DNA of 61,680 nucleotides, counting the filler, from Hausera hauseri (taxonomy: Eukaryota): NCBI GenBank assembly GCA_046269625.1. It is 9 parts of 9 records of this genome, joined end to end, with 100 filler letters (N's around TTAATTAATTAA, not from the genome) between each part and the next. Parts side by side here need not be neighbours in the genome. Positions count along the whole stretch, not along the records: positions 49,506 to 61,680 come from JBJURY010044443.1; 8 more parts are not named here. One strand, given 5' to 3'. Made by a program: the position numbers and the translations under genes. Each line of letters opens with the position of its first letter. Within the stretch, counting starts at the first letter, position 1. The notes under the pieces were generated by a model. It worked only from the letters and a program-made list of their open reading frames with translations, was not told where the DNA came from and made no database searches. Shown piece after piece: positions 6,060-61,680 of the stretch.

Positions 6060-7020
6060 AAAGCACATTTTCTCACTACTCTATTTCTATTTCTAAAACA
6101 TTAATATTAGTGGCAAAAATATGTTCTACCCTACATCTAGTCACTTTTTTATTTCCGATAAGTCTTACAAAGTCTTTGATCTTCGTGGATATCATAACTG
6201 TTGGTGTATCTATTTGTTCTAATTTATCTTCTTCATTCTCACTTTCAATATTTCGTCGTGCGAATGGTGTACTGAGTCGTATTCCTCTGGTTACGTTAAA
6301 TTTTACCTTTTTAAGAAGGCTAAATTACATTCGACCACCGCTGCAGTCCAAGTAATAATGGAATAAGTAGGTCTACAGTACTCAGTACCGTACTCACAAT
6401 CTGTTTTAACCATCAATTGTTTTAATTCCACATCAAATGAAATATCCTCTTCAATAATAGTTAATGTTTACAATGCTTATACAACAACTCTTGCCACACC
6501 AACCACTGTGTTTCCACAACAATCTCCGTTAACCGTAATAGAGCCTTCCTCATTGATAGTGTGATAATTTATAGCGTTTACGGCCGCTGCTATTTCAACT
6601 TTGTTATTTATTTTTAATTTTCCCATTTTCATCGCATCTCAGCATTGATCCATGCCATTTATTTATTTGCTTAGTCAACTTACATTCAAGCGCTTTCATT
6701 CGTATAAATCTATTTTCTTGGTACATCCTATAATGTTTAGTGTCTTTAAATATAAGTTTATCAGGTCTCGCATCTGGACATTTTTCTAGGTGTAAAAGGG
6801 CGTATGAGTCTCCAACAGTCGGATAGTCACAATTATAGGCTCGAAACGCATAAGTTCCCTTATACAAAATTAGGAGAAGTATAATTAGCCAGGTTAAATC
6901 AGTACTTCCTGTTCTATGTAATGTACCACTAAATAACCCTTGAGCTCTAGTAAACAGTTCAGAAAATCCATGTTTTCCTTGATCATTTTTCCTGCTTCCT
7001 AACTCTAGTAATTTATTTTC
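6060..7020 (-). pseudogene. Decayed chuvirus-type glycoprotein N-terminal half, homologous to the glycoprotein at 52141-53984
   Basis: LTWLIILLLILYKGTYAFRAYNCDYPTVGDSYALLHLEKCPDA..MYQENRFIRMKALEC aligns with IIQILLITSLLMPKAVGIVAYDCSKPSEGQKYSLVDLEKCPEA..VYQESEFIKAKVREC; later CEYGTEYC vs CEYDNGEC and LLKKVKFNVTRG vs LLKEGKFNKTVG; stops and frameshifts. Confidence 0.85.
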
Positions 7021-10245: not shown

Positions 10246-10745
10246 TTAAATATTTTCATTAACCCTTTCTTTACTTGCGAGACTTCAAGTCCCAGTGGTA
10301 AATTGCGATTAAAAATCGATCTAGACTTCTGTACGGTCACTTTACCAGCGGGACTTCGTGGTCCCAGTTGGAGGAATGTGATTTATTGAACGAATCCAGT
10401 TTTGATTTCGTATTTACGACTGATATTCCTGTCAATCACGGTGTTNNNNNNNNNNNNNNNNNNNNNNNNNNNNNNNNNNNNNNNNNNNNTTAATTAATTA
10501 ANNNNNNNNNNNNNNNNNNNNNNNNNNNNNNNNNNNNNNNNNNNNGCCCACATCAGAAAAACAGCCGTAAGTGGACAGATCTCATGAATGATTTCTTTCT
10601 TTACTGAGTGGCGTTTAAAGAAAAGAGGCTTGGCCAGATCAAATTCACCTTAAAGAGATTGAAACACCAAGTGTTGTCAGCGAGCAGGTCCGGTCCTTCT
10701 GACGATTCTTTACTTTTAATCAACATGTTCGTCCGCTTTCCACAG

Positions 10746-10848
10746 GACGTCTGACAGCTGCCACACTTCTCCCGTCACCACGCCTCTCATTCTGTACGAC
10801 GGGTCAGAGGAGGAGCTGATGGACACCATCGAAAGAGAGTTCAGCTGA
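10746..10848 (+). CDS. cys1: Probable terminal coding exon of a teleost cystin-1-like gene
   Basis: Acceptor ttccacag, then TSDSCHTSPVTTPLILYDGSEEELMDTIEREFS*, matching my recollection of the cystin-1 C-terminus (YDHSEExLMASIEREY); flanks 10546-11058 are GC-richer and fish-like. Confidence 0.55.
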
Positions 10849-11059
10849 CAGGTCAGCTCAGCACACTGCAGCAGAGCCGTACCCGCTGGTTTCAACATGA
10901 GAAACTTGGATCCAGCTCAAACAGAACTCCTGACTGTTGAAGTTGATGGAGCTGTGTGTCTGCAGCATCAGAGGCCAAACAGAACCCTGAGCGGATCAGA
11001 ACCTGTCCAGGAGACTCCTATCGGTTCTGAACAGGTTTTGGACTGGTCTGGTTCTGAAT

Positions 11060-13150
11060 TTATCCATCCAAATCGACACTTTCTTGATTGATTCTGGTAT
11101 CTATCAGATCTTCATCGTCTGGTTGTGATCCTGGCCTGATGCGTTCAATAGGTATAAGTGTGGGTTGCATTTGTTTCAACAATAGCAAATATTTAATCTG
11201 GCCGTTAAAAAATTGTTCTGTAACCGATTCAAGTGTATTTGATACAATTAATTTAATTCGCAATTTGGTACTGAGCTGTACTCCGAAATTTACGGGTAGC
11301 TTCAGTATTACTGTTGTTTTCTGATATGGCACCAGAAAGTATTGACTGTCCGGTCTTTGATAAATGACTCCAATGAAGTTATTTCTTTCAGAGTTCCATT
11401 TTGAAATTCGTCTACATGTAATGGTCTTTTTGAAGAAATAGGGTCTGTCAATGTGATGTATTGGGATTGGCAGAGTTAGATGATCTTTCTTCAATAATAT
11501 ACCGAAATGGAATGCCATTTTTTCTACATTGTTTAAGCACCTTTCTATTTGTTGGGCCAATTTATCCGAATTTGATAACATTGTGTGAGTCATTATATCC
11601 TTGGTTTGGGGCGGGTGTTTCCATAATCCGATTTCTAAATCTTCATCGTTAACATCTGCTGCGAGTATTTGCTGAATATCTCTGTTATCCACTATATCCT
11701 CTGATTGTTCTGACTCCGGATCTTCTAGAGATATATTATCAGGAGTATTGAGCTCCATATCTATATCAATTTGTTCGTTGGTATCATTTTTTTTCTTACC
11801 ATTAACCAAACATACGTCAATTTTATGTATCCATCCGAAATTTTCTAGATACTTCTCTCTTCTATAAAATAGCTCACCAACGTCTATTATATTTTCTTGG
11901 GGATTGTCAGGTGTCCAATTTACTTGTCTTGGTTCATTGATGATATGTAAAATATCCATAGTTAATTCAAGTTTTCCATCTGTATCCTGATTATAAAGTT
12001 GACCATTCCGAAATTTTGGCAGTTTCAATTCTTTTGCAACATTGGTAATATCTATGGTAGTAAAAGTGACTCCTGTCACTTCTGGATGTTTCAGTATATC
12101 TATCACTCCTGCCAAATAATTTGGGTGGATTTCAAATATCTGTATCATTCTATGGGTATCAATACCCATCACTATGGTGCCGAAGAGCCATTGTGTTAGT
12201 TCTTTGGAAACTTCAAAAACATCAATTCCTCTTGATTGTAGAATCTGGAAATCGATTCCATGTCGGCCAGTGTTACAGTTATGAACTCTGTCTCTATTTA
12301 CCACGAATGCTCGATATAAGGTCTTTCCTTTCATATCTGAAACAATCACTTCTAACGGCATAGGAGATCCATCCACTTTGTAACCCAACGACACAGTCAA
12401 TACTCGAACGTTGTTTGATTGATTAGTTTGCAGATAATTTAGTTTTGAGTCCATTATAATTTCCGGCGGTGTCTGAGCTAGCACCATTGGACGTGGCATA
12501 GATAAGTGCTTTTCAGGTAAAAGCCACTCAATCATAAGTATTAGTGGTAGTCTGTTTGGTCTGAACTGAATTAGATTGGCATTCATAGGCGTGTTTATGG
12601 CTAACGTCTCCTCCTCAAAAAGGGTTGCTATATTGGACATATTATATTGAGAACTTCTTGATGTTTTTATGACAAGGTTACCTCTTGTCATGTGCAATAT
12701 GAGGCCATCAATAGAGGGACATTCTGTTATGTATTCTTCTAGTGATCGCTGATGTGATTCCGTAATGGTGGTAATTTTTATATGTCTGTTGACAGTCGGT
12801 CCATATTTCAATGAATTGGGAATCTGGGTTACATGATAGAAAAACTGCTCAGGATATACTGTTGCTTCTCTTCTGATATAATTGTAAAAAGTTCTGGACA
12901 TGGTTTTGGTAAATGATGAATTCTTAGATGCATACTGTGATAATAACTGTTCTATTGGGAGAGTGTCAGCATGAAACAATGGAAACAAACTAGTGGATCT
13001 GTTTTGGTGATGAATTTGTGCCATATCTTTTTTGTTTCTGATTCTTCGGTATCTGTCTTTGTGTTGGTGGTACAGGGGTAAAATATACCTTAAGCAGTAC
13101 CTAACATATAAATAATTCTTCTCCAATTCAACCCCGAGTTTTCCAGACAT
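11060..13150 (-). CDS. 696-aa protein with an inactive DEDDh (ISG20/REX4-like) exonuclease-fold domain; homologue of 57468-58856
   Basis: QIPNSLKYGPTVNR vs QIPNNLKGYSMSNR; PLEVIVSDMKGKTLYRAFV..VHNCNTGRHGI..TIVMG..LAGVIDILKH vs PIECSVITLDGQTLFYSVI..INNFDTHLTGL..KVIIG..IAGVRDILYH. Confidence 0.75.
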   Translation of the reverse strand: MSGKLGVELEKNYLYVRYCLRYILPLYHQHKDRYRRIRNKKDMAQIHHQNRSTSLFPLFHADTLPIEQLLSQYASKNSSFTKTMSRTFYNYIRREATVYPEQFFYHVTQIPNSLKYGPTVNRHIKITTITESHQRSLEEYITECPSIDGLILHMTRGNLVIKTSRSSQYNMSNIATLFEEETLAINTPMNANLIQFRPNRLPLILMIEWLLPEKHLSMPRPMVLAQTPPEIIMDSKLNYLQTNQSNNVRVLTVSLGYKVDGSPMPLEVIVSDMKGKTLYRAFVVNRDRVHNCNTGRHGIDFQILQSRGIDVFEVSKELTQWLFGTIVMGIDTHRMIQIFEIHPNYLAGVIDILKHPEVTGVTFTTIDITNVAKELKLPKFRNGQLYNQDTDGKLELTMDILHIINEPRQVNWTPDNPQENIIDVGELFYRREKYLENFGWIHKIDVCLVNGKKKNDTNEQIDIDMELNTPDNISLEDPESEQSEDIVDNRDIQQILAADVNDEDLEIGLWKHPPQTKDIMTHTMLSNSDKLAQQIERCLNNVEKMAFHFGILLKKDHLTLPIPIHHIDRPYFFKKTITCRRISKWNSERNNFIGVIYQRPDSQYFLVPYQKTTVILKLPVNFGVQLSTKLRIKLIVSNTLESVTEQFFNGQIKYLLLLKQMQPTLIPIERIRPGSQPDDEDLIDTRINQESVDLDG

Positions 13151-15885
13151 GAGGCATCACGTTTTTAATTAATCGGATATCTCTGTTAGTCTCCTGATCC
13201 GAAGGATTATGAGTTCCAAAATAATCTTGGGTTCGACGTAAACCCCATGTGCAGAGATGCAGCCATTTAAACCTCAATTTTCTATTCATTCTATATCCAT
13301 ATGGACCTACACCAATCCAAGGATCACCCATTGGTTTGTAGCAACGAAATTATAGCTTTTATCAATAAAACTAAAATGTTAATCCTATCGAAATATTAGA
13401 ACAGGAATGATCATTACCCACTTTACACATTTAGATAGGCCAAGGCTGTGAGACGTAAGTTGGGTATGTATTGGAATCATAATATTGTAGGTAACTCGAG
13501 TCGGGCATATATTGGAATCATAATATTGTAAGTTAATTCGTGCAATTTGACATATTCGATGTCCCGACGATTATCAAAATTTAATGGGATGACTAGGAAT
13601 TTTCCAAAGATAATTAATAAGATACATCCGATGTCCCGACGATTATCAAAATTTTCAATGTAATCATCTATATATAGCCGTTACTAAAAATACTTCTTAC
13701 CAAATTCAAATTCCATTTACGCATGTTTTGGTTATATTTATAAATTCACCTTTACCATTAAGATGTTTATTTACTTCATTTCATTATTCGGTTTGTTGGG
13801 CGAACTACTATTCTTTACGCATCGGACACCGATCTAGACCCGATAGGTAGGGCGTACACGAAATTTACCATTATCTAATCGATAACCACAAACGCAGTAG
13901 AAATACAGGGAATCGATGATAAACATCCCCGAATAATTTCCTCAAATGTTATTCATCAGGATTATACCATCTCTCATCCTCGTAATACTTTTGCTAAAAC
14001 AGCGACGTGTACCCTTTTGTATATGCAACGAAAATTTTTGGGTTAAGACGGTTTCACCAATCGTCTTTATGATCGAGGTCAGATATCAAGTATTGCGTTA
14101 TTTACGGTATCACTCCTCCTTTCTACACAACTGGAATTTATCCAAGGCCAAATATACAAAATTTAACATGATTCTTTTGCAGTCGGACTGAATATAAATT
14201 CGTTCAATTTTCACTAATAGTACCATCTTTTAACGACATCACCCGTCGAATTGACACCCCAATGATATATATCGATCTGTGTTCGTCAGTGATTATTCTA
14301 ACCATTGGCTTGGTCCTCACTGGGCAATCATTGAGCTGGTCCTGATCTCTAGCGATTCTTTCACTACAATATCTCTCAATATCCCAGCCTGTATGATGAC
14401 TGTCCCCAAATAGGAGGAATCTTTCCTTTTAATTTTCGTCTATGCGAACTAAAAATTTTTAGTTTCTAACTCCATCGCTTCTATATCTGCACATACCAAT
14501 CTGGATAATTGGTTGGCAATATTATCAAACGGCTTCCAGTTTTTTAATTAACCCTGGTTAGAAAAGATGCATCCAAATCAAAACATGAATCATTCATATA
14601 ATATTCTCTCATCTCTATCAGATCGTTCACAGCCGCATAACAATTTCATCTTGCGCCTTTTCAATAATCTCATCATGCCGGAAAGCTAATTACCAAAAGA
14701 AGCCGAAATCTAGTTCGGGGAGTCATTGATTCTAAAATAACATCACACTGTTAAGGTTCACCCGGGAACATCTGAACGACAGACTAACAAATCTGACTTG
14801 CTCAAAGTTTCAGGATTAGCTGAGGTATTAGTACGCTTCTTTAAGTCAGCTCTTTCTAACGTTTACAGTACATCAAGATACTTTCCAAATCATGACCCTT
14901 TATTCGGTATCCATCCAGATCGGTAATCTTCTGACAAGCCAAGGATAAACTCCAATTGATATAACAACTATTACTGATCCATGCATCTTAAACTTTAAAA
15001 CGGTATTTATACGCAGCGGAAACCGCATCTCTTTATCGCACAACTAAATATAAAATTTTATTTATAGGTACAGCACAGATAATCACGTAAATATAACTCT
15101 TCTTGTTTATCAAATATATTCAATGAACAAATTGTGATCGTCGTTATTCAAAACAATAACGCATATTGAATCAGCATCATGCGACCTTGAGTTGCCGTAA
15201 GTCCATTCTTTCTCAATTCGACTACCGGCTTGTCTCTGTTTGGATTTCCCTAATTTACACAACCTTCCATAATTTAACTAAATCAAAATGATTCGAAATC
15301 GATAACCTTCGAACTACATTTTACAATTATATTAGACATGATATCGATGTAAACAGGATTCTCCGTAAACCGCAATACCATTAATAATCGTTATATTCAT
15401 TGTCACAGAACGTTCAAGGAGGCAATCATCTATCATATCGGTGTACTGCTAGCCAATTCATTGTCATCCTGTCGTATATCCCGTGTCTTGTCGATTCTTT
15501 CGCTATGCATCTGTATACAGGGGGTCTCGACAGCCATCTTCTTTAATCTTTGGTCCATAATGACTAAGAGGCCAATCTTGTTATCAAATTTATTTTTTAA
15601 AATATTTATTGTACTACAATGATTTACACAAAAATAAAAACAAAATAGAATCAAAATAGATGAACCGAAGACACACGTACCCGATTCCAATTCCAACGAG
15701 TTGATAGAGACATCATTATTGTTCGTGGCCATGGTCCTATTATTGACTATAATTATCAAAACTTTCAATGTAAGATCCTACCTTGGATTCCAAATTTCAA
15801 AATTGAATAGGTTGAAGGTAAAATAAGTGTGTTTTTAAGGTTTTTGAGGCAAGTTTATATACTTGCGTGTTTCTATTTTCAGGGA

Positions 15886-16340
15886 TGACGCAAATTTATT
15901 TTTGGAGATTGCGACACTATGTCGTTATTTTCCAATTTTAATTTTGGAAAACCAAACACAATTCTTTCAATGACGCAAATTTATTTTTGGAAATTGCGAC
16001 ACTATGTCGTTATTTTCCAATTTTAATTTTGGAAAACCAAACACAATTCTTTGATGGAATCCCAACACTATATCCCCATTTCCAATATGACAAATCCATT
16101 TTTTAAAATTGATCCACAAATAATAATTTGCTTATATTTTCAAAATATTTTCAAAATACAATCTCGTGCATTTTTAGAATTGTTCCACAAATAATAATTT
16201 ACGCATATTTCTAAAATATTAATTTTTCAAAATACAATCTCATGTATCCACAAATAATAACCTACGCATATTTCTAAAATATTATTTCCCGAAATAATAT
16301 ATTCAATAATCTACGTGCAAATAATAATTTGCGTATACTT
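15886..16340. repeat. Tandem/nested direct repeats: ~85-bp duplication TGACGCAAATTTATTTTTGG..., then CCACAAATAATAA/CATATTTCTAAAATATT units
   Basis: Visible near-identical copies at 15886 and 15971; further short duplications at 13468-13655 and 16495-16575. Confidence 0.85.
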
Positions 16341-16639
16341 TTATTTTTCAGGAAGACGTATCTCTAAGTTCACCAACAGGGTCAGGGATACAATAATTAT
16401 ACAAGATACAGGAAAAATATGGATGTCCATCATGTGGGACTTAACATATTTATAACAGAAGATAATATAAAAATAATGGTTTATTGTCATTCCAAATGTA
16501 TAGAAAAATTCAAAATCATTTATTTAATCGTCATCAAATGTATAGAAAAATTCAAAATCATTTAATCGTCATCATAATAATGTGAGATGTAAGTGTAAAT
16601 GTACGCGGAGGTTTGTTGGGAAGGTTCTTTCGGAATGTT

Positions 16640-16672
16640 GCTTAAGGGGTCGTAACAGTTCTCCCCCTTTTG
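16640..16672 (-). promoter_or_regulatory. Gypsy-type polypurine tract and LTR start (AAAAGGGGGAGAAC-TGTTACG, TG at 16657)
   Basis: Purine tract immediately followed by TG on the minus strand. Confidence 0.5.
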
Positions 16673-16825
16673 AGAAGGATTCGGTCCTCCGGATCACTCT
16701 GGGTACTGGCATCGATGAAACTGAGNNNNNNNNNNNNNNNNNNNNNNNNNNNNNNNNNNNNNNNNNNNNTTAATTAATTAANNNNNNNNNNNNNNNNNNN
16801 NNNNNNNNNNNNNNNNNNNNNNNNN

Positions 16826-46147: not shown

Positions 46148-47812
46148 TTGTTGACTGCAATAAAATTACGTAGACATTATATGGCGATATCAAATCAAAG
46201 TTTTCATAAGAATACAGAACAATACTTAAATCTCCTTCAGTGTGAAAGTACACCATCCGACTACCACAAAATGAACATTGAATATTCTAATCCTCAAAAT
46301 GACATTCAAAGTGATCATCTATTAATGCTTCTAGTACTCAAGATAGCCCATATAAAGTCAGAATGATGTTCATTAAAATTGAAGCCGATTTGTCGTTTGT
46401 AGATGGTGCAATGACTGTTCATAATAAAACTGATAATTGTACAATCAAATGCCAAATTCACGTTTCTGAATTTCTCCGAGATTATCATGCACTGTAGACT
46501 TTTGTTAGTGATGGGCCTCTAAAGTCGTTTTGCTTCAAACGTTTGAATTTTTTGAAACATCGATATTATCTGCACTGTTTATTGAACGAATTGCATTAGT
46601 CAGCCGAAAAAAAGACAATTGCTCATAGAGACTTACAATATTCGAAAAGTGGACACATATCCATGCATCATCATCTATGAATAAGAAACACTTGTTGCGT
46701 TTTATAAAAAAATGTCTACGTACTCGTCCAAATGAAAAAGTTTTGGTTGATAAATCTCCCAATCAAATATTGACTCTTAGCGAGGTCTTCAAGTCAATCA
46801 ACATTACCCCATATGAATTAACAATTATTAAACTTGGTGTTCATTGTGATCGTGATACATTCCACAGATTTGATAAATTCAATGCAAAGTACAATCCTGT
46901 TGGACAAAGTGAACTGAGTTAAGTGTTTCTAAAAACCGATAATTATAATAAGGGTCAATTGTTTGCCCAAATAATAAGACGTTATGGAAGATTTAGGAGT
47001 CAAAATACCAGCATGCAGAGCTGCGAATGTCTGTTTATCGCCGAAGTATTAACGAATGGGATCAGTTATCAATTTGGGCCATTGAAAATAATGTATATTC
47101 CAACAATGTCCAATGGATGATTCAATTTCCCCTGATTTATGATATTTTCCAATCTAGTTTTAATTAAAAACTTTCAAGACATTATTAGTAATATATTTTT
47201 ACCACTTTTTGAAGTTACCTGTAATCCCGAAAGTCATCCAGAATTGAATGCCTTTCTTTCTCGCGTTAGTGGTTTTGATCACGTCGACGATGAATCGAAA
47301 ACAGATACACGTGCTTTCGACAAAAATTCTCCAAATCCAGAAAATTGGGATAGTGAAGATAATCCTCCTTATTCTTATTACCTCTATTATACTTTTGCCA
47401 ATATCACGGTTTTGAATGCCTTTAGGAGACAACGTGGAATGAACATATTCACCTCTCGCCCACACTGTGGTGAAGCTGAATCAATACAGCATTTGGGTGC
47501 TGCCTTTTTATTTGGAGAAAGCATTAATGACGCATTATTATCGCGAAAAACTCCATTTTTGCAGTATTTATATTACACTTGCCAAATTAGGATTGCAAAG
47601 TCCACTTTGAGTAATAATTCATTGTTTTTGCATTATCAAAGGAACCCATTTTATGAATGTGTCGAGGACTTAACATGAGCCTAAGCACAGATATCCATTG
47701 CAGTTTCATTTCACAAAACAATCTCTAATGGAGGAATACAGTATTGCTGCCCGGGTGTGGAAACTTACTTCTACAGACGTGCGAACTTGCTAGAAACAGC
47801 ATGCCGATGAGT
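46148..47812 (+). pseudogene. AMPD: AMP deaminase pseudogene, intronless
   Basis: [102 protein letters not shown]; multiple stops and frameshifts. Confidence 0.93.
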
Positions 47813-49505: not shown

Positions 49506-49582
49506 TTTTTTTGTTGATCCATCCATACTCCATACAGACGCGACTACTGCTTTCTGTGTTTCTGTTTTATCAGGTATTCTCG
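49506..49582. repeat. 77-bp terminal direct repeat identical to 61604-61680 (assembler circular overlap)
   Basis: TTTTTTTGTTGATCCATCC...GGTATTCTCG at both contig ends. Confidence 0.97.
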
Positions 49583-52500
49583 ATAAGTAGTCGGCATTAG
49601 CATTTCGCGATCCAGGTTTGTACTGGAAATTCAAAGTATACGGCTGCAACTTTAGAGCCCATCGTAATAATCTACTGTTGGGATTTTCATGCTGCTTCAG
49701 CCATTGGAGTGGTCTATGGTCAGTATAAATCAGAAGAGGTTTGTTTTCACTAATATATGGTGAAAATACTTCTAACGCAAATATTACTGCCAATAACTCT
49801 TTTTCTATCACAGCGTATTTCTTTTGGTGCTTATTGAGTTTTCGTGACGCATAAGCTACTGGATGTTCCTTCCCATCTTCTCCTTTCTGTGATAATACAG
49901 CTCCTACTCCGTAATCACTTGCGTCGGTTGCCAAAATAAAAGGTTTGGTCATATCCGGATAAATTAATATGGGGGCTGTTAGTAGTCTATCTTTTAAGTA
50001 ATCAAAGGTTTTCTGACACTCGTTCGTCCAAATAACTTTATCTAAGTCCTCTCGTAGTAACTCGTACAAAGGCTTTGCGATTTTGCTAAAATCCTTTATG
50101 AATCTTCGATAATAATTGGCTAAGCCTAGAAACTGACGTAGTTCCCTAACCGTACTCGGTTTAGGAAAGTCTCTTATCTTTCCTAAGAGCTTATCCTGAG
50201 GTTTTACACCATTTCTATCTACTTTATGTCCGAGGAAATCTACTTCTGTTTGAGCAAAAGAACATTTCTTAGGATTTATCTTCAAACCCATTATTTTGCA
50301 TCTATCAAAGAGATCCTGTAGATCTTTCATGTGTTGTTGGAAATCTGATGATGCTATTATTACGTCGTCTATATATACCATGGCATGGGGGGCATCTAAT
50401 AACAGAAGTTCTGTTCCTCTCTGGAATGTCGGTGGCCCGTTTTTTAGCCCGAATGGCATTCTATTAAATTCCCACAGTCCTTCGCCGATGGAGAAGGCTG
50501 TCTTGGGTTTGTCTTCTTCTTTAACCTCCACTTGCCAATAGCCCTTTTGCAAATCTATAGTCGTGAATATGGTTGATCCATGCAATTTATCTAGTATTTC
50601 GTCAATTCTTGGTAATGGATATGTGTCCGTTTCTGTTATCTCGTTTAACGCTCTATAGTCTATGCAGAATCTCATAGTCCCATCTTTTTTCTTAACCATC
50701 ACTACCGGAGCTGTCCAAGGTGAACAGCTCGGTCGAATTATCTTATTTTCCCTCATTTCCTTTATTATTTTTCGTGCTTCTTGTTTTTTGTCAAATGCCA
50801 ATCGATATGGTCTCTTTTTAATTGGCTTATCTTGTCCGTCTTTTAACTTAATGGCATGTTGAATAACCTTCATAGTGCCTAGGTCGTAATCCGTTTGAGC
50901 GAATCGGTTATTATTCCTTTCTAGTAACTCTATTAACAACTTCTTCTCTTCTTTACTTAAAATTATACATCCTTGTAATCTTTCATTCCAGTCGATGTTT
51001 GTAGGCTTACCTTTTTTGTTACTATTTGATTTTTGTTTTTCTATCATCATCTTTTCTATTTTGTCCACCTCTGATGTTATCGTGCAGCTCTCTTCTTTTA
51101 TCACTTCTTCCATTGTTGTTATTTCTCCCAACCTAGTATCCTTTCGCAACCGTTTTTCTTTTTTTGTTGTATTACATATAAGTAAGTGAACTTTTCCATC
51201 TCTTACCTTATCCACATGAGGAGCTATTAGTAATTCGTACTTTTCCATAACCTGTGGGGATGGTTCAAAATATATAATATCTGGTAGGACGCGACTTTCT
51301 ATTCTTCCAGGCACCACTATCTCAGATCGAGGTGGAATTGTGGTGTCTTTCACTAGCGAGACCATTCCTTCATTGCGATCATCATTAAACGTCTTAAGTT
51401 GACCGGTCTTTACATCTATATAAACATTTTCCAATTGGTTTAGAATGTCACATCCTATTAAAATTTCGTTGGTTAAGTTATCTGCTATTCTTATCGTATG
51501 TTTCACGATTTGTTTGCCTATTCTAATTTCAGCGTCTAAGACCATTTTTATTTCTTCTTCTGTGCCAAATGCTCCTATGTTTACTAATGTATTGATTGGT
51601 TTCCGTAATTTCCTTTTTAATTCCTTTGGTAATTGGCTTCTTCCCATTATTGTCGTCGTAGATCCCGTGTCTAGTAACGCGGTCATGGGGTGTCCGTTTA
51701 CCTCTATTTCGATTTCCGGTCTTATAGGGTGTTGTTGTGCGTTTTTATCATTTGTTTTATACGTTGTTTCACGTTTATAGGGCTCTGCATTTTCTTCAAA
51801 ATTTCGTTGCATCTGTTGTACTTGGTGCATTGGATATAATCCTGTGTGCACTACATATCGTGGAGCTGAAGGATTCATTGGTGGTAATTCATTATATGGT
51901 CGCTCGTTATATGATTGTCCATGGTATTCGTCTGCTGGGTCTAGACGAGGCAAATCCGTTATTAACTTACGTTTATATTTTGGCCTTCGTGTCCTCAACA
52001 TTAAGTGTTTAATATTATTTATATGTTTCTTTGGTTTTCTTTGACTATCTTCAATATCACTATCATCGGGCATACTATATGTGGACTCCTTTACATCCTT
52101 TCTTTGTATTAACTTCCTTTTCCATCGTGCATCGTGATTCGCTAGAAAGCAACTGGCTACGGCAGGTATTACTGCTATTAAGATTTTCCATGAACATTCT
52201 ACTGCTGCATGTATTCCATAGGCTTTACCTAATGCCGTAAATACCGTTCGAATAGCGCTAATGATAAAGTATATGGCTAGGAAACCGGAGGCTGCTTGAC
52301 CGAAATACAAAAATTTTCCCCACATCTTTTCCATGACGTTTTTCGTTACTTTCCTTAGATAATCTTTTCCCATAAGGTTTTCCCATTGTGGTGACCCTTC
52401 GCCATCCCACATTACTCTCCGGGTTAACTCTGTTATAACTCTCTGTCTTTGCTGGGGAAATAGCAGCATTCGTCGATAATCTTCTAAATTTTGTTGTGTG

Positions 52501-55500
52501 TAAATTCCTCCCTGGGATATTCCTGTCAATGGTTCAAATTTTTGATTCCTTTGTAAGTTGATCAGGCTTAATGTCTCTGGATTAGATACTGGCTCTCTTT
52601 TTGGCATTCTGACCCATTTATTGTTATCAATCTTAAACATGGGTGACATATTAAATGTGCAATTGTATAATGGAGTAGGTTTCACGTTAACATCTAAAAG
52701 TATTCTTGTTACTGGCATAACATATCGTGGTTCCGCATGATAAATTACTGGTAGTTCCATAGTGCATTCATTCGTCGGTCGAATTGATACTTCTACTTTC
52801 TTGCATTCTATTGTTATCAATACCTCGCCCATCACTCTTCCAATAATTCCATCACCAAAGGGCATTACAGGAGCTACCATGTCCGGATTTGTTATTACTA
52901 GTGCCATTTTATTACGCACTATTTCATAGTTTAGCTTACACTCGTTCGTTATTATCTCACGGTATAAACTTCTAATTTCCTTTCTTACATAATTTATCAA
53001 GAAGTCGATCTTGTTATCGAAATATTGTGACAACTTTATATCTTTCTTATCGATTTTAGTTTTTGCACCGGGTATTTCTTTTCTTGATAAGAAGATACCC
53101 TTATAATTAGTTTTTGAGACTTCTTCATTACATTTCGTTGCTACTCCCGTGATCTTAAATCTCATCATGTCCTCCGGATTTTCTGAATATACAATCGTAG
53201 CTACCTCCGTCATCTTTACTTCCTTCGTTCCTTCTTTAAACGTTGCTGTCTCCTTTTCTGCCGTTTTTCCCACTGTCTTATTAAATTTTCCTTCTTTCAA
53301 CAGTGTTAGTTGACATTTGCTTACCGTGGTTTCCCACGTCATTTTCGATTCTCCGGTGTCGCATTCTCCATTGTCATATTCGCATTCGCTCATCGTTGTC
53401 ATTAGTTTTGTTTGTGAATCAAATAACGCTTCATATTCTTTCAACTGAATTTGGTAATCTTCGATAGCTACCGTTCTAGGTGCAATAGTACCTCCTACGT
53501 CGTAATCTACTCCCTTACACGTGCCTTCCCTAGTCTTATCTATTCTTCCTGCCCTGAAAATTCTGGTGTATTTTATTCGGTTTCTAACTGCCGGTATGTG
53601 GGCATTTTGTATCGTAATAATGCCAATCTTGAAAGCATCCTGACACTCCGCTCTTGATACTATAATCGGTTCAAAGGGTGTCGTAGGCTCAATTATAGCC
53701 GAGTTTCCGGAATAGTAAGCGCAGTTGAACAGGAAGAACGACCTTTTAACATAACATTCCCTAACCTTTGCTTTTATAAACTCCGATTCTTGATATACCC
53801 AATAAGTGAGACCACCTGTCGTTGTTAACCGTTCTGGATCAGCTTCTGGACACTTTTCCAAATCTACTAGTGAATATTTTTGACCTTCGCTGGGTTTAGA
53901 GCAATCATAAGCTACTATACCCACTGCTTTAGGCATAAGTAGCGATGTTATTAGGAGTATCTGTATAATTTCCATCATTGACATACCTGGTTTATTAATA
54001 CCTGGTTGCATCGGAGTTGGTGTCTCTATCAGTCTTTCTCGTTCTCCGGGCCTTATTGCATTAGTCATGAGGCTGGTTAACCATCCGCCTCTGCATTGAG
54101 CCCAATTTCCCAGTGTATCTTTCAATATTTTCACAACCGTCTGTATGTTCCGTTCTATCTCTTCTAAATTTTGAGTTTGATGGTTAATCACTATTATCTT
54201 GTATATGAGATATGATATAGCCGTTCTAGCTTTTTCTCGTGTAATCCCTGTGGCGAACATTTTCTCCAAAATATCCAACTCGTGTAATTCGTTTATTCGT
54301 TCCTCATCTAAATTCTCATAAAATTGCCTACTTATTCGAAGCATATTATTACGCAGGGTTGTAAATAATTCATCTGGGATTATTGTCTGCATGTCAAATG
54401 AAGCAAAGGACGTATGTAATTTGGCTAACAGCGTTCTTAATAATGGGTCTATGTCCACTGATTCAGACATGCCATCTGTTCCTGCTAATAGTAAACGTCT
54501 TACTATTTCCTCGTTCCTATCTTTCCTATTACGTATGTCACTTATTTTCGTTCCTTTTGGCCTACCTCTTCTTTTACCTTCTGTTTGGACTGTAACATAT
54601 CGTGCCTCTCCTATAGGAACTTCTTCAACTCTGTGTGGTTCCATTTCCCTCAAGATATCCTCCACTGTTGCTTGTGCTCGAGCTTCAGGATGTATTTCGG
54701 TTATAATTACCGGATTGTAATTCTCACTTCTACATCCTATTCTCAATAATTTATCATAATTATATAACGTCCTTCCGTAATAATTTAATCCATAGGGACT
54801 TCCTTGATAAAAAGGTTCAAGTTCCTCAATCTTCTCTCTTAAAGATTGTATATCATCTATTTCGTTCATCCTAATAACCCTCATATCTTGATTACCTTCT
54901 CTTACTGTTATCCGTATGACTTCATTTCTTCCTTTCTCGTCCTCAGCGGCTTTAGCTAATATCGTTCTTGCTATTTCTCTAATGGGATTGGTATCTTGAG
55001 CCAATAATACCAGTTTAGGTAAAATTTCCTTCATCTTTTCTATCGTTATTTTATTGTTAAGTATTTTTAGAATAGTGGTAGTCGTTCCATCCACATCGAT
55101 TATATTATCTGGATCGACAGTCATTACTGCCTGAATAATATCTTCTTCTTCGTCTAGGTCTACTCCTGGATTCCTTATTACTTCATCTAATACGGTATCG
55201 TCAAACATTGGCGTAACTTGAGTTTCTTCTGGACTAAATGAAGGTGAGGGTGTGCTAAGGCTTTTCTTTCTTCCTCTTTTCTTTTCTTTTACTACCTCTT
55301 CCCTCTCCGTTGATGTTTCTCTTGATTCGGTTTCTACATCAATTATTTTCCTATTGCTTTTCTTTCTTCCTCTCTGAGATACCTGTTTCTGTGGTTGATC
55401 TCCTATCATGTAAATACTGCTTTCCTTCAACCTTTGTTGTTGCCTTTTATATTCCTTTAATTCTATTTCTAATCGCTTTTTCATACGTGATGGTAACGTA

Positions 55501-56531
55501 TCATCGATGTAATTAGTACTCTCTTTCTTTTTATCTTTTTTCTTCACTTCAGATTCGCTAACACTATCCTCCGTCTCATATTCTTTATCGGAAGATTCAT
55601 CTGACGTTGTTAACGTATAGTCTTTCTTAGATGGTTTCTTCTTATTACTTGATTTTGAGGGATCTCCTTTACGTAATTTGCACGACTTGGCTATATGCCC
55701 ATATTTATTACAATTGAAACATTTTAATCTTCCTTCGGAATCAATATTGGGTAAGGATCGTCCATCTTTCTTGAACTTCTTTTTGTATCCTGTCTTCTCT
55801 CCATCATTCTTTAAATTAAACCTTACTTTCTTTTCTCCGTCCGACTCGGCCTCTGTAGCTGATGTCTGTGAGGGGCTTCGATTCCTATTATAACGTTGAT
55901 ACTTCTGTGTACTTTTTTGCTTATCGTCATTATTGTCGTAGTTTCTGGATTTGTTCCACTTATATAATTCAGCGTCTCGTTCGGCTTTACGTGCCTTTCT
56001 TATAGCCTCCTGGAAGGTAGACGGATCAGCCTGTAATATTATACTTCTTAATCTGCCTTCCAGTCCGTATTGGAATTGAGCCAACAGCGCATTACTTCTT
56101 ATTACTGCATCGGGGTACGCCCTTGCGGCTAGCTTTTCCAGTGCACAGACAAAATCTTGGACTGTCTCATCTTTTCGTTGCCTCCGTCTTATAAATTCTT
56201 CTATTCTCCCCTTTCCAGAGGGATCAACTAGAAATTTCTGAGGTAACTTATCTTTGACAGTCTTCCAATCTTTCTTTTCTTCTTCTGGCATCTGAAAGAA
56301 AATTGTTAATGCAGTTCCTTTTAGGTGAAGAGGTAACCTCTCCATCCTTTGTTGGTCATTCCATCCGAAGCTTTTTGAATATACCTCATATTCCATTATG
56401 AAGTCTTGCACATCTTCTTTTCCTGAAAATTTCTTCATCGGGAGGGTGAAATCAGCCTTTGACTGAATCACCTGTTCTACATTATGGTTAGCCATTGTTT
56501 CTTCTTCACTTAGGTCTCTCAAATATTCCAA
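49506..56531 (-). CDS. Polyprotein part 1: Gag (CA, CCHC 55680-55721), UBL (54684-54923), chuvirus-type glycoprotein (52141-53984), protease (DTG 51663-51671), dUTPase-like spacer, RT (YIDD 50364-50375), RNase H (~49580-49945)
   Basis: FSGKEDV..F..GW; CFNCNKYGHIAKSC; LLDTGS; SPWTAPVVMVKKKDG, CIDYRALN, DLQKGYWQ, MPFGLKN, YIDD; ATDAS, EKELLA, TDHRPL; no stop or frameshift. Confidence 0.96.
52141..53984 (-). other. Embedded envelope domain: internal signal peptide, Cys-rich Jingchuvirales/Monjiviricetes-type class III fusion glycoprotein, TM anchor
   Basis: MSMMEIIQILLITSLLMPKAVG/IVAYDC; EC.VK; GTCKG; NECKL...NPD.VA....G..GRVMGEV...C..VEVSIRPT.EC..ELPV.Y.....PVTRIL; GGIYT; TM FGQAASGFLAIYFII. 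Confidence 0.85.
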
Positions 56532-56635
56532 TCCGAAGGGTTCGTCTTTGTCTGGGTGATAAATCGTTCCTTTCCTAGTAGTAATGGTGGTACTTTCTTA
56601 ATCTAAAGGTCCTAAGATAAATCGAGAGATTAATT

Positions 56636-56654
56636 ATCCCGGGTCACGGCACCA
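56636..56654 (-). promoter_or_regulatory. Primer-binding site complementary to tRNA-His
   Basis: TGGTGCCGTGACCCGGGAT, 3 nt after ...TTAACA LTR end; close match to the tRNA-His PBS TGGTGCCGTGACTCGGAT. Confidence 0.9.
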
Positions 56655-56657
56655 GTT

Positions 56658-58875
56658 TGTTAAATACCCACTAATTTCTTTTATAAAGAACTTTTATAGG
56701 TACACTTAATTAGGGGGATTAACAAATATGTTCGTTTCGTTTGACCAGCAGAGGGTATAGATCGTGATTTCAGACGGTCTTACCTAACTATCAGTAGGTA
56801 ATGTGTTTTGTTTAAGTCAGTATTTCACGTTACCCACTAAGGATTATTATCCTATATATTATTTAATATTAAACGGGTGGTCGTCAGGTAGGGTTAGACC
56901 TGGTCGACCGAGAGCCAAGTTATTTGACGATTACTTATTTACTTTGGTTTAGTTAAATGAAACCAACAACGTTTATACAAAAATATAATTGATAAAATAA
57001 GAAAAATGATATAACGAAAAACAATGAAAGATTAGAATTCACCATAAGCAATACACTTACTAGAAGACATGTCGTATCGTACGATCAGAAATAAAAATTG
57101 TTCAAGTTTGTGGTGAAAATCCATTGTATTTATACTTAATCAAAAATCACATATTTGTCCATATTAGGACTAATAATGTATGTGCACAAAAATTAATATC
57201 CGAATTAAGACATTTTAAATACATAACATGAATATAACATGAATTAGAATGTCACATATTGATCAAGACATGACAGGATATTGTCATGAACATTTATTTG
57301 AACAGTATTTATTTGAATCAAAGGATGACCAGTTGAACAATGTTCATAAATGTTTATTTGAATCCAGGTAACAATGTTATTTGAATGTTTATTTGAATCA
57401 AATGTGATCAAAGGATGGGGGGCACAAGAAAATTGTCCCGAATTTTATAAGAGGAAGACAACTTGTTTCATTGATCGAGCGGGAGTGGTACGTGGATAAA
57501 TTTGTCAGAAGTCCTGCTTTTGTATCTGATTGCTTCTGGCTCATAGACCTCATCGTCAATCACCATTGTTTCGGCGGTTTGGAACTTTCTTTTTCTTCCA
57601 GCTGTGGTTGGTGTTATTAGCACCGTATCGGAGGCCGAGGCTTGAGTAATCATCTCATCAGTCCACTTGAGTTGCTTGTAGATAGCCTGGTAGCATTGTA
57701 CCAAGGCAGTACTTCGGAGTGGCATTCCACGGGTATCGTAGAATTTCTTAGCCAACTCCTTATAGGTATTTGTCGTCAATTGATACTTACGGATAGCCTC
57801 TTCGTGATAAAGAATATCGCGAACTCCGGCTATCCGTCTGATTGGGCATTTACAATGGTTGATTATCATCTCGAGAACGTCGGCTCCTATTATGACTTTA
57901 TCTGTTAGGACTTCTGTGATCTTCCGATAGAACTCATTCACGTCCATTTGATTATTGATGTGGGACTCTGCCAAACCCGTTAGGTGGGTGTCAAAATTAT
58001 TGATTCTTTGACGCGGAGAGATGACACTATAAAAAAGGGTTTGACCGTCCAATGTTATAACTGAGCACTCAATAGGTTGCATCTGGTTCCACTGGTCATA
58101 TGCTAGGTTGATCGCGGCTATGACCAAGTCCTGGTTTGTGACGTGCTGGAGTCTTCTATATGGGATTGTCTTGTATCGTAAATAATCGGGTTCGGGGAGA
58201 TAAAAACATTTTCCTTCGGGAATGATAGGTTGAAGAACCTCCTGTTTGATGATCTCAAAGGCTATCATAATCCTGTTGGTCAAAGAACGTACTTTTACTG
58301 TGTTGTTCTTTATGAATTGGTACTCGAAGGCAAGGGCGTGGTCTTGATCCATATTTATTAGGTCTCCTTGGATCGAGGTCTTACGATTGGTTGATTTAAT
58401 ATGAAACTTGCCAGCGATGTTATAAATGTTCATTGAATGATATCTTTCGGGTAATATGATCAGATCTTGAATGTAGAAAGACGTTGCTTTTGTTAACTGT
58501 ATCAGGGCCAATGATCTGTTGCTCATGCTATACCCTTTCAGGTTATTTGGAATTTGAGGTGTTTGAGGATAGTTGAGACTATAGGTATAGTCATTATGGA
58601 TTACATAGTATTGACTGTTTGGGTTAGCATTAATGAGGTGGGTTTTGGCGTTGCTGAACCAATGTTTTGATCGGGTTATCGATTGAACTTGACGATCCGT
58701 TGAAATTGATACTGAAAGAAGAAATGTCAATGGCAAATCATTGTAGGTATCTACATACAACACAACGGTTATCAAACACACAGTGGTAATCGTTGTAGTT
58801 TTAATTTTTACTTGATTTCTATAGGTAACCTGATGAAGTGTGGTTATCTTTGTCAAAAGGGTTGCATAATTAGCA
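56658..58875 (-). repeat. Candidate single (collapsed) LTR, ~2.2 kb, TG...CA, containing the pseudo-exonuclease ORF
   Basis: 3' end ...TATTTAACA fixed by the PBS; 5' end TGCTAATTA (7/9 inverted match) follows purine tract AAGAGTAGGGA (58877-58887); the 5' boundary is inferred. Confidence 0.55.
57125..57420 (-). promoter_or_regulatory. U3-like promoter/enhancer
   Basis: TATAAA (57129-57134), CArG box CCATATTAGG (57159-57168), repeated (TG)TTTATTTGAA forkhead-like units, two ATCAAAGG TCF/LEF-like sites (57317, 57407). Confidence 0.55.
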
Positions 58876-58892
58876 ATCCCTACTCTTAACCG
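57468..58892 (-). CDS. Accessory ORF with inactive DEDDh exonuclease-like domain; probably expressed by readthrough
   Basis: ECSVITLDGQTLFYSVISPRQRINNFDTHLTGL..L...EFYRKITEVLTDKVIIG matches the REX4/ISG20 fold pattern; Exo I DxE replaced by NLA; frame open up to the TGA at 58893-58895. Confidence 0.75.
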   Translation of the reverse strand, partial: RLRVGIANYATLLTKITTLHQVTYRNQVKIKTTTITTVCLITVVLYVDTYNDLPLTFLLSVSISTDRQVQSITRSKHWFSNAKTHLINANPNSQYYVIHNDYTYSLNYPQTPQIPNNLKGYSMSNRSLALIQLTKATSFYIQDLIILPERYHSMNIYNIAGKFHIKSTNRKTSIQGDLINMDQDHALAFEYQFIKNNTVKVRSLTNRIMIAFEIIKQEVLQPIIPEGKCFYLPEPDYLRYKTIPYRRLQHVTNQDLVIAAINLAYDQWNQMQPIECSVITLDGQTLFYSVISPRQRINNFDTHLTGLAESHINNQMDVNEFYRKITEVLTDKVIIGADVLEMIINHCKCPIRRIAGVRDILYHEEAIRKYQLTTNTYKELAKKFYDTRGMPLRSTALVQCYQAIYKQLKWTDEMITQASASDTVLITPTTAGRKRKFQTAETMVIDDEVYEPEAIRYKSRTSDKFIHVPLPLDQ

Positions 58893-59450
58893 TCAGCTGG
58901 GGTTACCCGTAGCTGACGGATTTGTTATATCTCGTAAGTTGATTCGTATCCAATTTTGTTTCCTCCTACATTGTTTTCGTATCACTTTAAACAATATTAT
59001 TATTATTATCACACTTATTATAGGGACTATTAAACTTGTTATGATTATTTCTAAGCGAGAATATGTATACGTAGCTCTAGGTGGTTTTTTGGTGGTACTG
59101 TCTTTAATCGTGCTTACTCTATTTGATAATTTTACTTTATTACTTTTCGTGATTGCAGATAATACTTTCGTAGAAATTATTTTATTGTTGTCATCTAGCA
59201 ATTGCAGAATAACTGTATATCTCATATCAGACTCCAAGGCTGCACATGGCGCTATAAGGTCGTCAGGGGTTATCATTCCTTTAGCCACTATAGTATCTTT
59301 TTTCTTGCAGCTGAATTTTATTTTTGTAAAATCAAACTCTGGTTTTACAGAGATGATTAGTGCTGTTGGAGCTGCTATAACGGTTACATTGTCCCATATA
59401 GAACGTTTCTGCCGATAATACGAAACATAAGGTTTAACTATAATAGTCAT
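58893..59450 (-). CDS. Type I membrane protein module: furin site, FN3-like domain, Thr-rich stalk, TM, basic tail
   Basis: RQKR/S; LESDMRYTVILQL; STTKKP; IIITSLIVPIISVIIIIILF then KVIRKQCRRK. Confidence 0.75.
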   Translation of the reverse strand: MTIIVKPYVSYYRQKRSIWDNVTVIAAPTALIISVKPEFDFTKIKFSCKKKDTIVAKGMITPDDLIAPCAALESDMRYTVILQLLDDNNKIISTKVLSAITKSNKVKLSNRVSTIKDSTTKKPPRATYTYSRLEIIITSLIVPIISVIIIIILFKVIRKQCRRKQNWIRINLRDITNPSATGNPS

Positions 59451-61603
59451 ATTTTTTTATCAGGTGAGGATTGCACAAATGGTGTCGTGACTTTATCTTG
59501 TATATCGTCGTATTCTTTTTGGTTTTTATATCGTATGAACATCGTCGGGCCTTTCTTTTGTAATCTATTTTCAACTTTTCCATATTCTTTTCGTGACAGA
59601 GTATATTTTACTTCGTATATTTTCCCTCTAATTACATTGCAACAGACTCGTTGATGCTCGTCCGTTAATTCGCATCTCCCTATTCTTTGTTTCCCTCCAA
59701 TTTCTTTTATGGATATGGTTATCCATCGGATGTATTCTAACTCTATCATACTTCTTACCTCTAGACAACTTCTTCCGCTCTTAAATCCCATTGGTTTCAT
59801 TTTTAATTGTGCTAGAATTATTTCGTCACGCCATGACTCGTTCATTTCTTTTCTGTTGGGGATTCGTATATATTTGTAAAATTTGGTATATAGACTATAA
59901 TAATGATCCTCTTTCTTCTTTAGGAGTGTTAAATATATTCCATGCATTCCAGAAGTGTCTATGGGACATTGTGTTTCATTTGTTTCTGAATGAAGAATAC
60001 AATTATCGTGTCTTCCACCGGGACTTCTTTCATAACCGGAGATTGGGTTTATTTGCATCTTTATAATATATTCGCCGAATATCTGTCTGGTAGTGTACCA
60101 AATCATACATTTGCGACCTGTCATGGAGTATGTCATTCGATATTTCAAACTTTTCAACCATAAATCTTCATTTATGGCCGTGGCGTGCCGTATTTTGGCT
60201 TGTTCGACTTCTTGAGGGGTCATCTGTCCAAATACATAAGGAAGTAAGATGATCAATATCAATAAATTCTTTAGTAGCCAATGTAAGTTATAAGTCGAGT
60301 TTTTTATCTGCGCCTTTTCTTTGATACTTAATACTATTTCTTTTTCGCCCTTCCTTAGCTCACTGTCTTGCGGTGCTAATTTACATCTATTAACATGAAC
60401 CTTTATAGACGTGTTATTTTTCTTAATGCAAATGTTTGGTAAATCTACTTTTTCTACCTCATACGGCCCTTTGTATGGTCTATCCAATTTAGATGTTTTT
60501 CCCTTTTTAATCGTAGGTGAGTGTAACATTACTCGATCGCCTATTTTAATCTTGGGCTGTTCTGTCTTTTTGTCATAATATTTCTTATATTTCAACTTAT
60601 ACTCCTTTTGATTATCACCAATTATTCTATATGCCAGTTGGAGACGTTCTTGCATTAGCTGTTTATAGTCTTCTACCTCCATTAGATGAGAAATTGGTTT
60701 TACGTTAAAATCCAGATCAATTGGTATTCGTGCGTCTCGTAAGAACATTAAATAGAAAGGTGTTTCTTTAGTAGCCTCGTGGACCGATGTTCGGTTCACA
60801 AAAACGCATGCATTAATGTATTCATCCCAATCATCTTGTCGAGTATTGACCACTGTTTGTAATTTCCCCTTTAAATCTCCAATATATCTTTCGACCATTC
60901 CATTATTTTCTGGATGTCCTGGCGTGGATCGTAACTTTAGTATTTTTAAAATATTGTATATGGCTTGCATTACAGTTCCCGTTAAATTTGATGCTTGATC
61001 AGTCAAGAGAATCCTTGGGGCTCCGTAATTAAATATTATATTTTCCACGAATTTCTCGGCAATGGTGTCTGCTTTCATGTCAGCCATAGGTATGGCAACG
61101 ACCCACCGGGTAAAATAGTCGATAAAAACCAATATATACTTATTTCCATTCCGCGTTAATGGTAATGGTCCTGTTACATCCATCGCAGTAAACTCGAAAG
61201 GAGCTGGAGGGTTATCCCATACTTTTAGTGGAGCTTTAAATTTTGATCCCGTATTTTTCCTGGTAGCGCACAGTTTACAGCTTACACACCACTCCTGCAC
61301 ATCTTTCGTTATCGTAGGCCAGAAATATTTTCGTTTTAATTTGTTTAGCGTCTTATTGGCCGATTGGTGTCCTCCAAGTAATCCATCATGATATTGTGTT
61401 AATAGAACTGCTCTATTTTTCTGTGGAATCACTAGTGCAGGTCCGTTTTGACTAAGGAAATACAAAAATCCTTCTTTTTCCTCATATGCTTCGCTAAATC
61501 GAGCCAGATGTCGGGCTAAGTCTCGATCTGCTGGTATAGTTTTATCCTTTATAAATTTTCTGATAGCCCTTATCTCGATATCTTCGCTTTGATTGGCCTT
61601 AAT
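59447..61603 (-). CDS. Polyprotein part 2 (continuous with 49506-56531): integrase (HHCC, DDE, GPY/F) plus internal signal peptide and Cys-containing ectodomain
   Basis: HDGLLGGH..CVSCKLC; MDVTGP, LTDQAS, NGMVER; YKGPY; LHWLLKNLLILIILLPYVFG/Q at ~60228-60287. Confidence 0.93.
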   Translation of the reverse strand: MKANQSEDIEIRAIRKFIKDKTIPADRDLARHLARFSEAYEEKEGFLYFLSQNGPALVIPQKNRAVLLTQYHDGLLGGHQSANKTLNKLKRKYFWPTITKDVQEWCVSCKLCATRKNTGSKFKAPLKVWDNPPAPFEFTAMDVTGPLPLTRNGNKYILVFIDYFTRWVVAIPMADMKADTIAEKFVENIIFNYGAPRILLTDQASNLTGTVMQAIYNILKILKLRSTPGHPENNGMVERYIGDLKGKLQTVVNTRQDDWDEYINACVFVNRTSVHEATKETPFYLMFLRDARIPIDLDFNVKPISHLMEVEDYKQLMQERLQLAYRIIGDNQKEYKLKYKKYYDKKTEQPKIKIGDRVMLHSPTIKKGKTSKLDRPYKGPYEVEKVDLPNICIKKNNTSIKVHVNRCKLAPQDSELRKGEKEIVLSIKEKAQIKNSTYNLHWLLKNLLILIILLPYVFGQMTPQEVEQAKIRHATAINEDLWLKSLKYRMTYSMTGRKCMIWYTTRQIFGEYIIKMQINPISGYERSPGGRHDNCILHSETNETQCPIDTSGMHGIYLTLLKKKEDHYYSLYTKFYKYIRIPNRKEMNESWRDEIILAQLKMKPMGFKSGRSCLEVRSMIELEYIRWITISIKEIGGKQRIGRCELTDEHQRVCCNVIRGKIYEVKYTLSRKEYGKVENRLQKKGPTMFIRYKNQKEYDDIQDKVTTPFVQSSPDKKI

Positions 61604-61680
61604 TTTTTTTGTTGATCCATCCATACTCCATACAGACGCGACTACTGCTTTCTGTGTTTCTGTTTTATCAGGTATTCTCG

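Follow-up and report, generated by a model that had tools for sequence, protein, structure and literature searches.

How an open reading frame (ORF) that lacks a usable start codon of its own comes to be translated is the question raised by a retrotransposon of an animal host, Hausera hauseri (GenBank assembly GCA_046269625.1). The window, that is the whole stretch of DNA that was analysed (61,680 nucleotides), is a string of separate contigs and all positions count along its full length; the element, a Ty3/gypsy long terminal repeat (LTR) retrotransposon of ~12 kb, lies on the minus strand of the last contig (49506-61680). On this strand an ORF encoding a transmembrane (TM) segment (59456-58893) ends with a TGA stop codon (58895-58893) with CGG next to it, and this TGA is the sole separator from a second ORF in the same frame (58892-57468, 474 amino acids): the junction reads CCC AGC TGA CGG TTA AGA GTA GGG ATT GCT AAT TAT GCA ACC CTT TTG. 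An earlier note on this DNA had pointed to the stop, the CGG and the 474 open codons that follow, all of which we could verify in the sequence, and had proposed that readthrough adds an exonuclease-like protein onto the membrane protein's cytoplasmic tail. Our analysis of the sequence signals instead suggests, with a probability of about 0.65, that the accessory gene is mainly expressed from its own spliced message via a mini-exon in the LTR; this figure, like the gradings of the alternatives below, is a judgement and not a computed value.

The accessory protein and the position of its start

The accessory ORF (57468-58892, minus strand) encodes a barrel resembling cupins and double-stranded beta-helix (DSBH) proteins together with a DEDDh (ISG20-like) exonuclease fold without catalytic residues, the folded part starting from about codon 68 (58691), which is also where the family profile match begins. 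The structure predicted from a 27-sequence alignment, with a mean predicted local distance difference test (pLDDT) value of 77, exhibits the same boundary: residues 1-64 are mostly below 50 (40-54 over residues 1-60), the fold starts at about residue 69, and values exceed 88 from residue 71. Foldseek matched the model to ISG20/ISG20L2 (E 6.7e-9, TM-score 0.77 by target length) and also to barrels of the cupin/AlkB type, and in the model an RNase H-like DEDD fold is present. The catalytic DEDDh residues of this copy are gone in the alignment, with the DxE motif aligning to A-I-N and the later D and HxxxxD positions lost as well. Searches with the sequence gave no match to the accessory ORF in Pfam, a best hit in the PDB at E 0.055 (ISG20L2), and RNase_T clusters at 0.90 in the ESM Atlas, a result of low recognition that serves as a lead only. 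The family is matched by 36 representatives at E ≤ 0.001, and the closest relative protein (P0005) is 61% identical.

The first in-frame ATG lies at codon 123 (58526), in agreement with the earlier statement that it is more than 120 codons downstream. A start at this codon is impossible because the folded domain begins ~55 codons earlier, the ATG falling within the barrel, and the need for another way of starting is thereby borne out. Among the two-domain relatives, the profile match begins within 26 residues of the called Met in 23 of 26 proteins, a count that omits 10 other matches (host-type exonucleases, fragments and one repeat protein). For two proteins, P0020 and P0021, the Met call falls within the conserved domain (at profile positions 24 and 54), as in the window copy: their start may come from a spliced exon, or the calls may be truncated.

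Predicted splice signals at the domain boundary and in the LTR

After the stop codon and before the folded domain lies an open spacer of 60 codons (58713-58892, minus strand), which is unconserved in protein, unfolded in the model and likely the 3' end of an intron. It borders on a predicted 3' splice site (58712-58730, minus strand) composed of a TTGAC branch-like motif, a pyrimidine tract and CAG, with the exon running from 58711 in phase 1. This acceptor (58712/58711) ranks first of the 347 YAG sites on the sense strand of the contig, exhibiting 13 pyrimidines in 17 positions and no other AG in the preceding 25 nt; three other sites tie at 13/17, and of these four it alone has both a branch-like motif and 25 nt free of AG. 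It falls between codons 60 and 61, seven codons ahead of the profile start at codon 68. Similarity to P0005 sets in just past this point (residues 61-78; 0 of 5000 shuffles as good) and is not found for codons 1-61 (shuffle p 0.35), a test that also ruled out a likeness between the spacer and the P0005 N-terminus noticed by eye (T-V-V...L-T-x-F-L-L). At the matching place P0005 carries Gln-Met, 22 residues before a shared Trp, which, judging from the protein alone, could represent CAG/ATG.

A partner for this acceptor is present in the LTR-like region, where a TATA-like box (57127-57134, minus strand), the putative promoter, is followed by an ATG plus 7 nt (57061-57070, minus strand), the predicted coding end of a first mini-exon in phase 1, and by GTAAGT (57055-57060, minus strand), a predicted splice donor that is one of three on the contig strand and the sole one in the LTR region. 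The donor (57060) stands 74 nt past the TATA box (57134) and 10 nt past the ATG (57070), and is in phase 1 like the acceptor. Transcription would begin in the LTR, as suggested by the TATA box at 57134, the short first exon would supply the ATG at 57070, and joining of donor 57060 to acceptor 58712/58711 would splice out gag, env, pol, the TM ORF and the UGA; once integrated, a copy would have its 5' LTR ~10.4 kb upstream of the acceptor by coordinate arithmetic. Because donor and acceptor are both in phase 1, the reading frame set by the ATG would enter the folded domain at its start and give a soluble protein, and the UGA would likely end the membrane protein in the ordinary way. The modelled spliced N-terminus agrees in length with that of the closest relative. 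Such an arrangement would be in keeping with the ORF3s of LTR retrotransposons, which typically form units of their own, with expression from spliced messages (PMC5408684). The earlier note had set a spliced mRNA against its own proposal as a different explanation of expression, and the acceptor and donor signals and their phase now make such an mRNA likely.

Related loci and the case for readthrough

Relatives of the element were obtained from a second metagenome scan, in which 285 candidate stretches gave five loci (L001-L005), whilst viral-contig scans and a first metagenome scan gave none. All are distant, with ~42% identity in the reverse transcriptase (RT) and ~24% in the accessory ORF. 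The in-frame stop junction, for which conservation in related copies had been proposed as a check, joins the exonuclease-like ORF to an upstream ORF in none of the five loci. L001 and L004 share the architecture of the window element, with gag to TM tail forming one ORF (3012 and at least 3207 amino acids) without a frame change: their polyprotein stops are TAA-A and TGA-A, a stop closes the continuing frame after 8 and 4 codons, and the exonuclease-like ORF begins with its own ATG 960 nt (L001) and 334 nt (L004) after the polyprotein stop. The upstream ORF of L005 is in a different frame, and L002 and L003 exhibit no upstream ORF of at least 120 amino acids within the available DNA. In three of the five exonuclease loci a YAG ends 0-2 nt before the ATG; L001 and L004 stop short of the element 5' ends, and so LTR donors lie outside them. 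Two or three accessory ORFs stand in a row in L001:9207-11684, L004:9959-12008 and L005:1006-3360, and in most of them a YAG precedes the ATG by 0-3 nt, which suggests that the whole family has a set of alternative acceptors. As the relatives are distant, a lineage-specific readthrough may still be compatible with its absence from them.

A second homolog within the window (13156-11060, E 2.6e-36) likewise has a phase-1 CTGAC/TAG acceptor-like site at 12951, with 68 open codons before it and no upstream ORF, as well as an ATG exon (15732-15681) placed after a TATA and ending at a phase-1 donor at 15680. The surrounding sequence (10546-16725, minus strand) appears to be a second, non-autonomous LTR element with a 698-codon pseudo-exonuclease homolog; no gag or pol ORF of at least 150 amino acids was found in it, and at its 3' end it gives way to unrelated sequence of higher GC content.

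The same relatives bear on the part of the earlier note in which readthrough is the sole route of expression, so that almost the whole genome could be one translational path with two recoding sites. Upstream of the junction, at an A run near 59450-59456, the TM ORF is out of frame with the polyprotein. In both full-length relatives (L001 and L004) a single frame extends from gag through the TM tail, where it ends; folding of the sequence 3' of the frame change gave no significant result (z -1.48), and a contig from sequencing run X1 covering 58774-59548 matches the window except for one substitution and one gap. The X1 contigs may be what the window derives from and thus do not count as independent of it. 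The offset is more likely a copy-specific break or an assembly slip than programmed frameshifting. Should the frame change be real, termination-reinitiation would be feasible, as the TM ORF has its first ATG overlapping the stop of the preceding ORF (ATGA, at 59450, minus strand). Profiles of the TM ORF and of the relatives' C-termini match only weakly (E 0.036 and 0.14), so that the correspondence of the TM regions rests on architecture and not on alignment. A readthrough-only route could draw on the open spacer, the rare stop context, the hairpin described below and the lack of any ATG before codon 123; it would nevertheless require two coincidences, namely that the contig's top-ranked acceptor sits at the domain boundary and that the LTR holds a phase-matched donor, and, with two full-length relatives showing no frame change before the TM segment, we regard it as very unlikely.

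Several observations weigh against splicing from the LTR as the explanation for this locus. Splice sites were scored by a simple count and not by a trained model, the -1 position of the donor is weak (A), a second TATA is found at 56698, and the transcription start is deduced from the box at 57134. Because protein records begin at the first start that follows a stop, they are unable to show readthrough. A YAG ends 0-3 nt before the ATG in eight of ten accessory ORFs, vs 5.5-19% of all ATGs, with five of those ten having been picked by eye after the pattern had been seen; two of the five exonuclease loci (L002 and L003) have no adjacent acceptor, and in the second in-window homolog the acceptor is unexceptional (5 of 163 sites score higher and at least 8 tie) and the ORF has ATGs of its own. 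At the junction itself, of 20,000 dinucleotide shuffles, 0.95% leave the 60 spacer codons free of stops in this frame (2.9% in any frame), and TGA-CGG/CTA accounts for 5 of the 774 stop triplets on the minus strand of the contig (TGA-C for 43), figures uncorrected for the site having been picked for these same features. A window of 42-48 nt, chosen after the 150-nt test, folds with z -3.0 to -3.1. Furthermore, one X1 contig lacks 84 nt (58674-58757), an in-frame gap that takes in the acceptor, although one of its flanks is just 21 nt long: if real, this would favour readthrough in a subfamily. For the splicing model, the open spacer, the CGG and the hairpin would have to be incidental, either coincidence or relic.

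These points could be accommodated if splicing gives the soluble protein and readthrough of the UGA-CGG, aided by a hairpin, also appends the protein to the membrane tail at a low rate. UGA-CGG is a true Type II motif (UGA-CGG/CUA; PMC3159437), as the earlier note had held, and the two other frames of the spacer contain 9 and 4 stops. The predicted local hairpin (58852-58890, minus strand; a post hoc window) begins 2 nt past the stop and has its inner stem 11 nt past it, inside the 7-12 nt range of stop-to-stem spacers in known Type II cases (PMC3159437), and its z of about -3 belongs to a class (z ≤ -3) reached by 9 of 506 contig windows. Stop suppression between the pol and env-like ORFs of SIRE1 has also been reported (cited in PMC2194720). 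Against such dual expression stands its absence from the five related loci, together with a spacer unconserved with P0005, a site that was selected by a scan for open frame and context, and the 68 open codons ahead of the acceptor-like site in the second in-window homolog, which lacks an upstream ORF. Folding of the 150 nt 3' of the stop, as proposed in the earlier note, was unremarkable (z -0.29), and windows of 78 and 103 nt gave z -1.05 and -1.52. A codon test of the spacer gave z 1.06, with 4 of 60 coding windows as low and non-coding and off-frame windows reaching 1.7. Overall, dual expression seems unlikely. Known Type II sites of alphaviruses, tobraviruses and furoviruses share with the window the UGA-CGG, the open frame and a possible 3' stem, but they possess a conserved long-range stem (~96-200 nt span) with compensatory changes (PMC3159437), whereas the window has a short local hairpin only and a junction unconserved in the relatives found. 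In a similar manner, SIRE1 (env-like stop suppression) and Tca2 (gag-UGA-pol) share an in-frame stop between two retrotransposon ORFs, yet both are Ty1/copia elements (PMC2194720) and the window element has a competing phase-matched splice route. Of the readthrough interpretation, then, the Type II context and the lack of a usable early ATG hold; relatives without the junction, and a spliced mRNA with signals in the right place and phase that would explain expression, speak against it.

The open spacer would be directly accounted for if the TGA were a private nonsense mutation in a lineage that had fused the exonuclease-like domain to its polyprotein. Cytoplasmic tails of ~80-88 amino acids in the relatives, vs 31 here, and the other frame break of the same copy near 59450 fit with this. 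Yet no fused form was found among the 36 representatives, in proteins of 831-2370 amino acids or in those of 364-1159 amino acids, searches that are weak and blind to non-representative proteins above 2370 amino acids; as a weak hint in the same direction, the X1 differences listed (40 of 4241) include a near-fixed one at 58915 (24 contigs) and none at 58893-58895. Such a mutation is the least probable of the explanations considered here. Very improbable, too, is an internal promoter or a trans-spliced leader, combined with a non-AUG start or a leader-derived AUG. CCAAT- and TATA-like motifs seen by eye just upstream of the ORF in L002 and L003, near-cognate codons within codons 6-72 and a phase-0 CAG at codon 21/22 would agree with this explanation. 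No promoter-like motif was noted by eye in the spacer or the TM ORF, where no scan was made. Trans-spliced leaders ending in AUG occur in flatworms; at the best acceptor such an AUG would be out of frame and meet a stop after 11 codons.

The element and its place among known retrotransposons

The contig carries a 77-nt terminal redundancy (61604-61680 identical with 49506-49582, at both ends of the contig), and an X1 contig spans the junction of these two ends: the contig is a circularly permuted element in which the LTR is present once. The domain search, read across the permuted junction and confirmed by the X1 contig, gave gag followed by protease and then by RT, RNase H and integrase. The 5' part of the polyprotein (49506-56597, minus strand) comprises Gag, a CCHC knuckle, a weak Bcl-2-like region (E 0.032, before env), a Monjiviricetes fusion glycoprotein, protease, RT and RNase H, the glycoprotein being a class III fusogen encoded between gag and pol in the same frame (PF24664, E 1.4e-90, residues 874-1522). 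The interval between Gag and Env (~54080-54930, minus strand; residues 560-840 of P0004) looks ubiquitin-like by eye in addition to the weak Bcl-2 match, an order as reported for Burro. Integrase, a signal-peptide-like stretch and an ectodomain form the 3' part of the polyprotein (59447-61678, minus strand), frame-offset from the TM ORF near 59450-59456, and the TM ORF (58893-59456, minus strand; 187 amino acids stop to stop) contributes a beta-rich ectodomain repeat, a hydrophobic helix and a 31-amino-acid tail. The 3' order is thus integrase, signal-peptide-like stretch, beta-rich ectodomain, TM helix, tail, accessory ORF and LTR-like region. A second membrane module consequently stands after the integrase (59447-60310 and 58896-59456, minus strand; L001:7799-9037; L004:8368-9621), beside the class III fusogen. 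With its signal-peptide-like stretch, Cys-containing beta-rich repeats, TM segment and tail, and without a Pfam match, this module could be an attachment protein.

LTR hallmarks are limited to one LTR-like region and a primer-binding-site-like motif on a contig without flanks. The motif (TGG..., 56637-56654, minus strand), which marks the LTR 3' end, would match tRNA-His; the window contains no tRNA genes. A polypurine tract was not seen in the element. In relatives a CGGGAC... motif is followed by a G run before the polypurine tract (L002:1725-1760, L003:1895-1930, window 16657-16690, minus strand); the element keeps the motif at 57415-57445 (minus strand), but with a C run after it and not a G run, and L004 likewise terminates in a C run near 12155. 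A single X1 contig covers 56632-57699, from the accessory ORF over the whole LTR-like region to the primer-binding site, unbroken and at a depth of 10.8, comparable to that of the internal region (7-14). A one-LTR circle or a tandem array fits this better than a two-LTR insertion, although a collapse of polymorphic insertions is possible. On other contigs of the window we noted a broken fragment of a same-class glycoprotein (6309-6840, minus strand) and, on the neighbouring contig, an AMP deaminase fragment (47136-47678, plus strand, E 2.1e-77), possibly captured host sequence.

Comparison with described elements shows this one to be a further member of a known gag-env-pol Ty3/gypsy kind. With Burro/GYPSM1, giant gypsy-like LTR retrotransposons of planarians, it shares a mononegavirus-like env in frame between gag and pol within one polyprotein and, weakly (E 0.032), the Bcl-2-like region before env; it differs in size (~12 kb vs >30 kb) and, from Burro as described, in the post-integrase signal peptide, ectodomain and TM segment and in the 3' pseudo-exonuclease ORF (PMC6431247). 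The Burro-like assignment is based on the gag-env-pol architecture. GAG-ENV-POL errantiviruses with an ENV of the herpes simplex virus (HSV)/gB type from Nematoda, Bryozoa and Platyhelminthes share the Ty3/gypsy pol order and a class III fusogen between gag and pol (PMC13524379); expression of accessory ORFs is not addressed in the main text of that paper, in which 'splic', 'readthrough', 'read-through' and 'exonuclease' do not occur. An accessory ORF of an exonuclease family 3' of pol is shared with the bdelloid elements Juno and Vesta, although their ORF3 is a DEDDy enzyme with intact catalytic residues (PMC5408684) and the window protein is of the ISG20/REX-like DEDDh type, with its acidic residues lost and fused to a cupin-like barrel.

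The two outcomes differ in what they would mean. One dead nuclease in two forms, soluble when spliced from the LTR mini-exon across ~10 kb and membrane-tethered when structured UGA-CGG readthrough attaches it to the tail of the post-integrase membrane protein, would represent alphavirus-type recoding in Ty3/gypsy that localises an RNA-binding accessory protein; we hold this to be doubtful. If readthrough also works, this Ty3/gypsy element would possess a rare recoding site: our literature search turned up no Ty3/gypsy readthrough case of this kind, which is no proof of absence. If the splice model is true, the UGA is an ordinary site and the accessory gene is expressed through splicing in the retroviral manner, the one small peculiarity being an LTR mini-exon as the source of the start codon, and the model gives a precise predicted junction and the correct N-terminus for a widespread, unnamed family of pseudo-exonucleases (36 representatives, no Pfam match).

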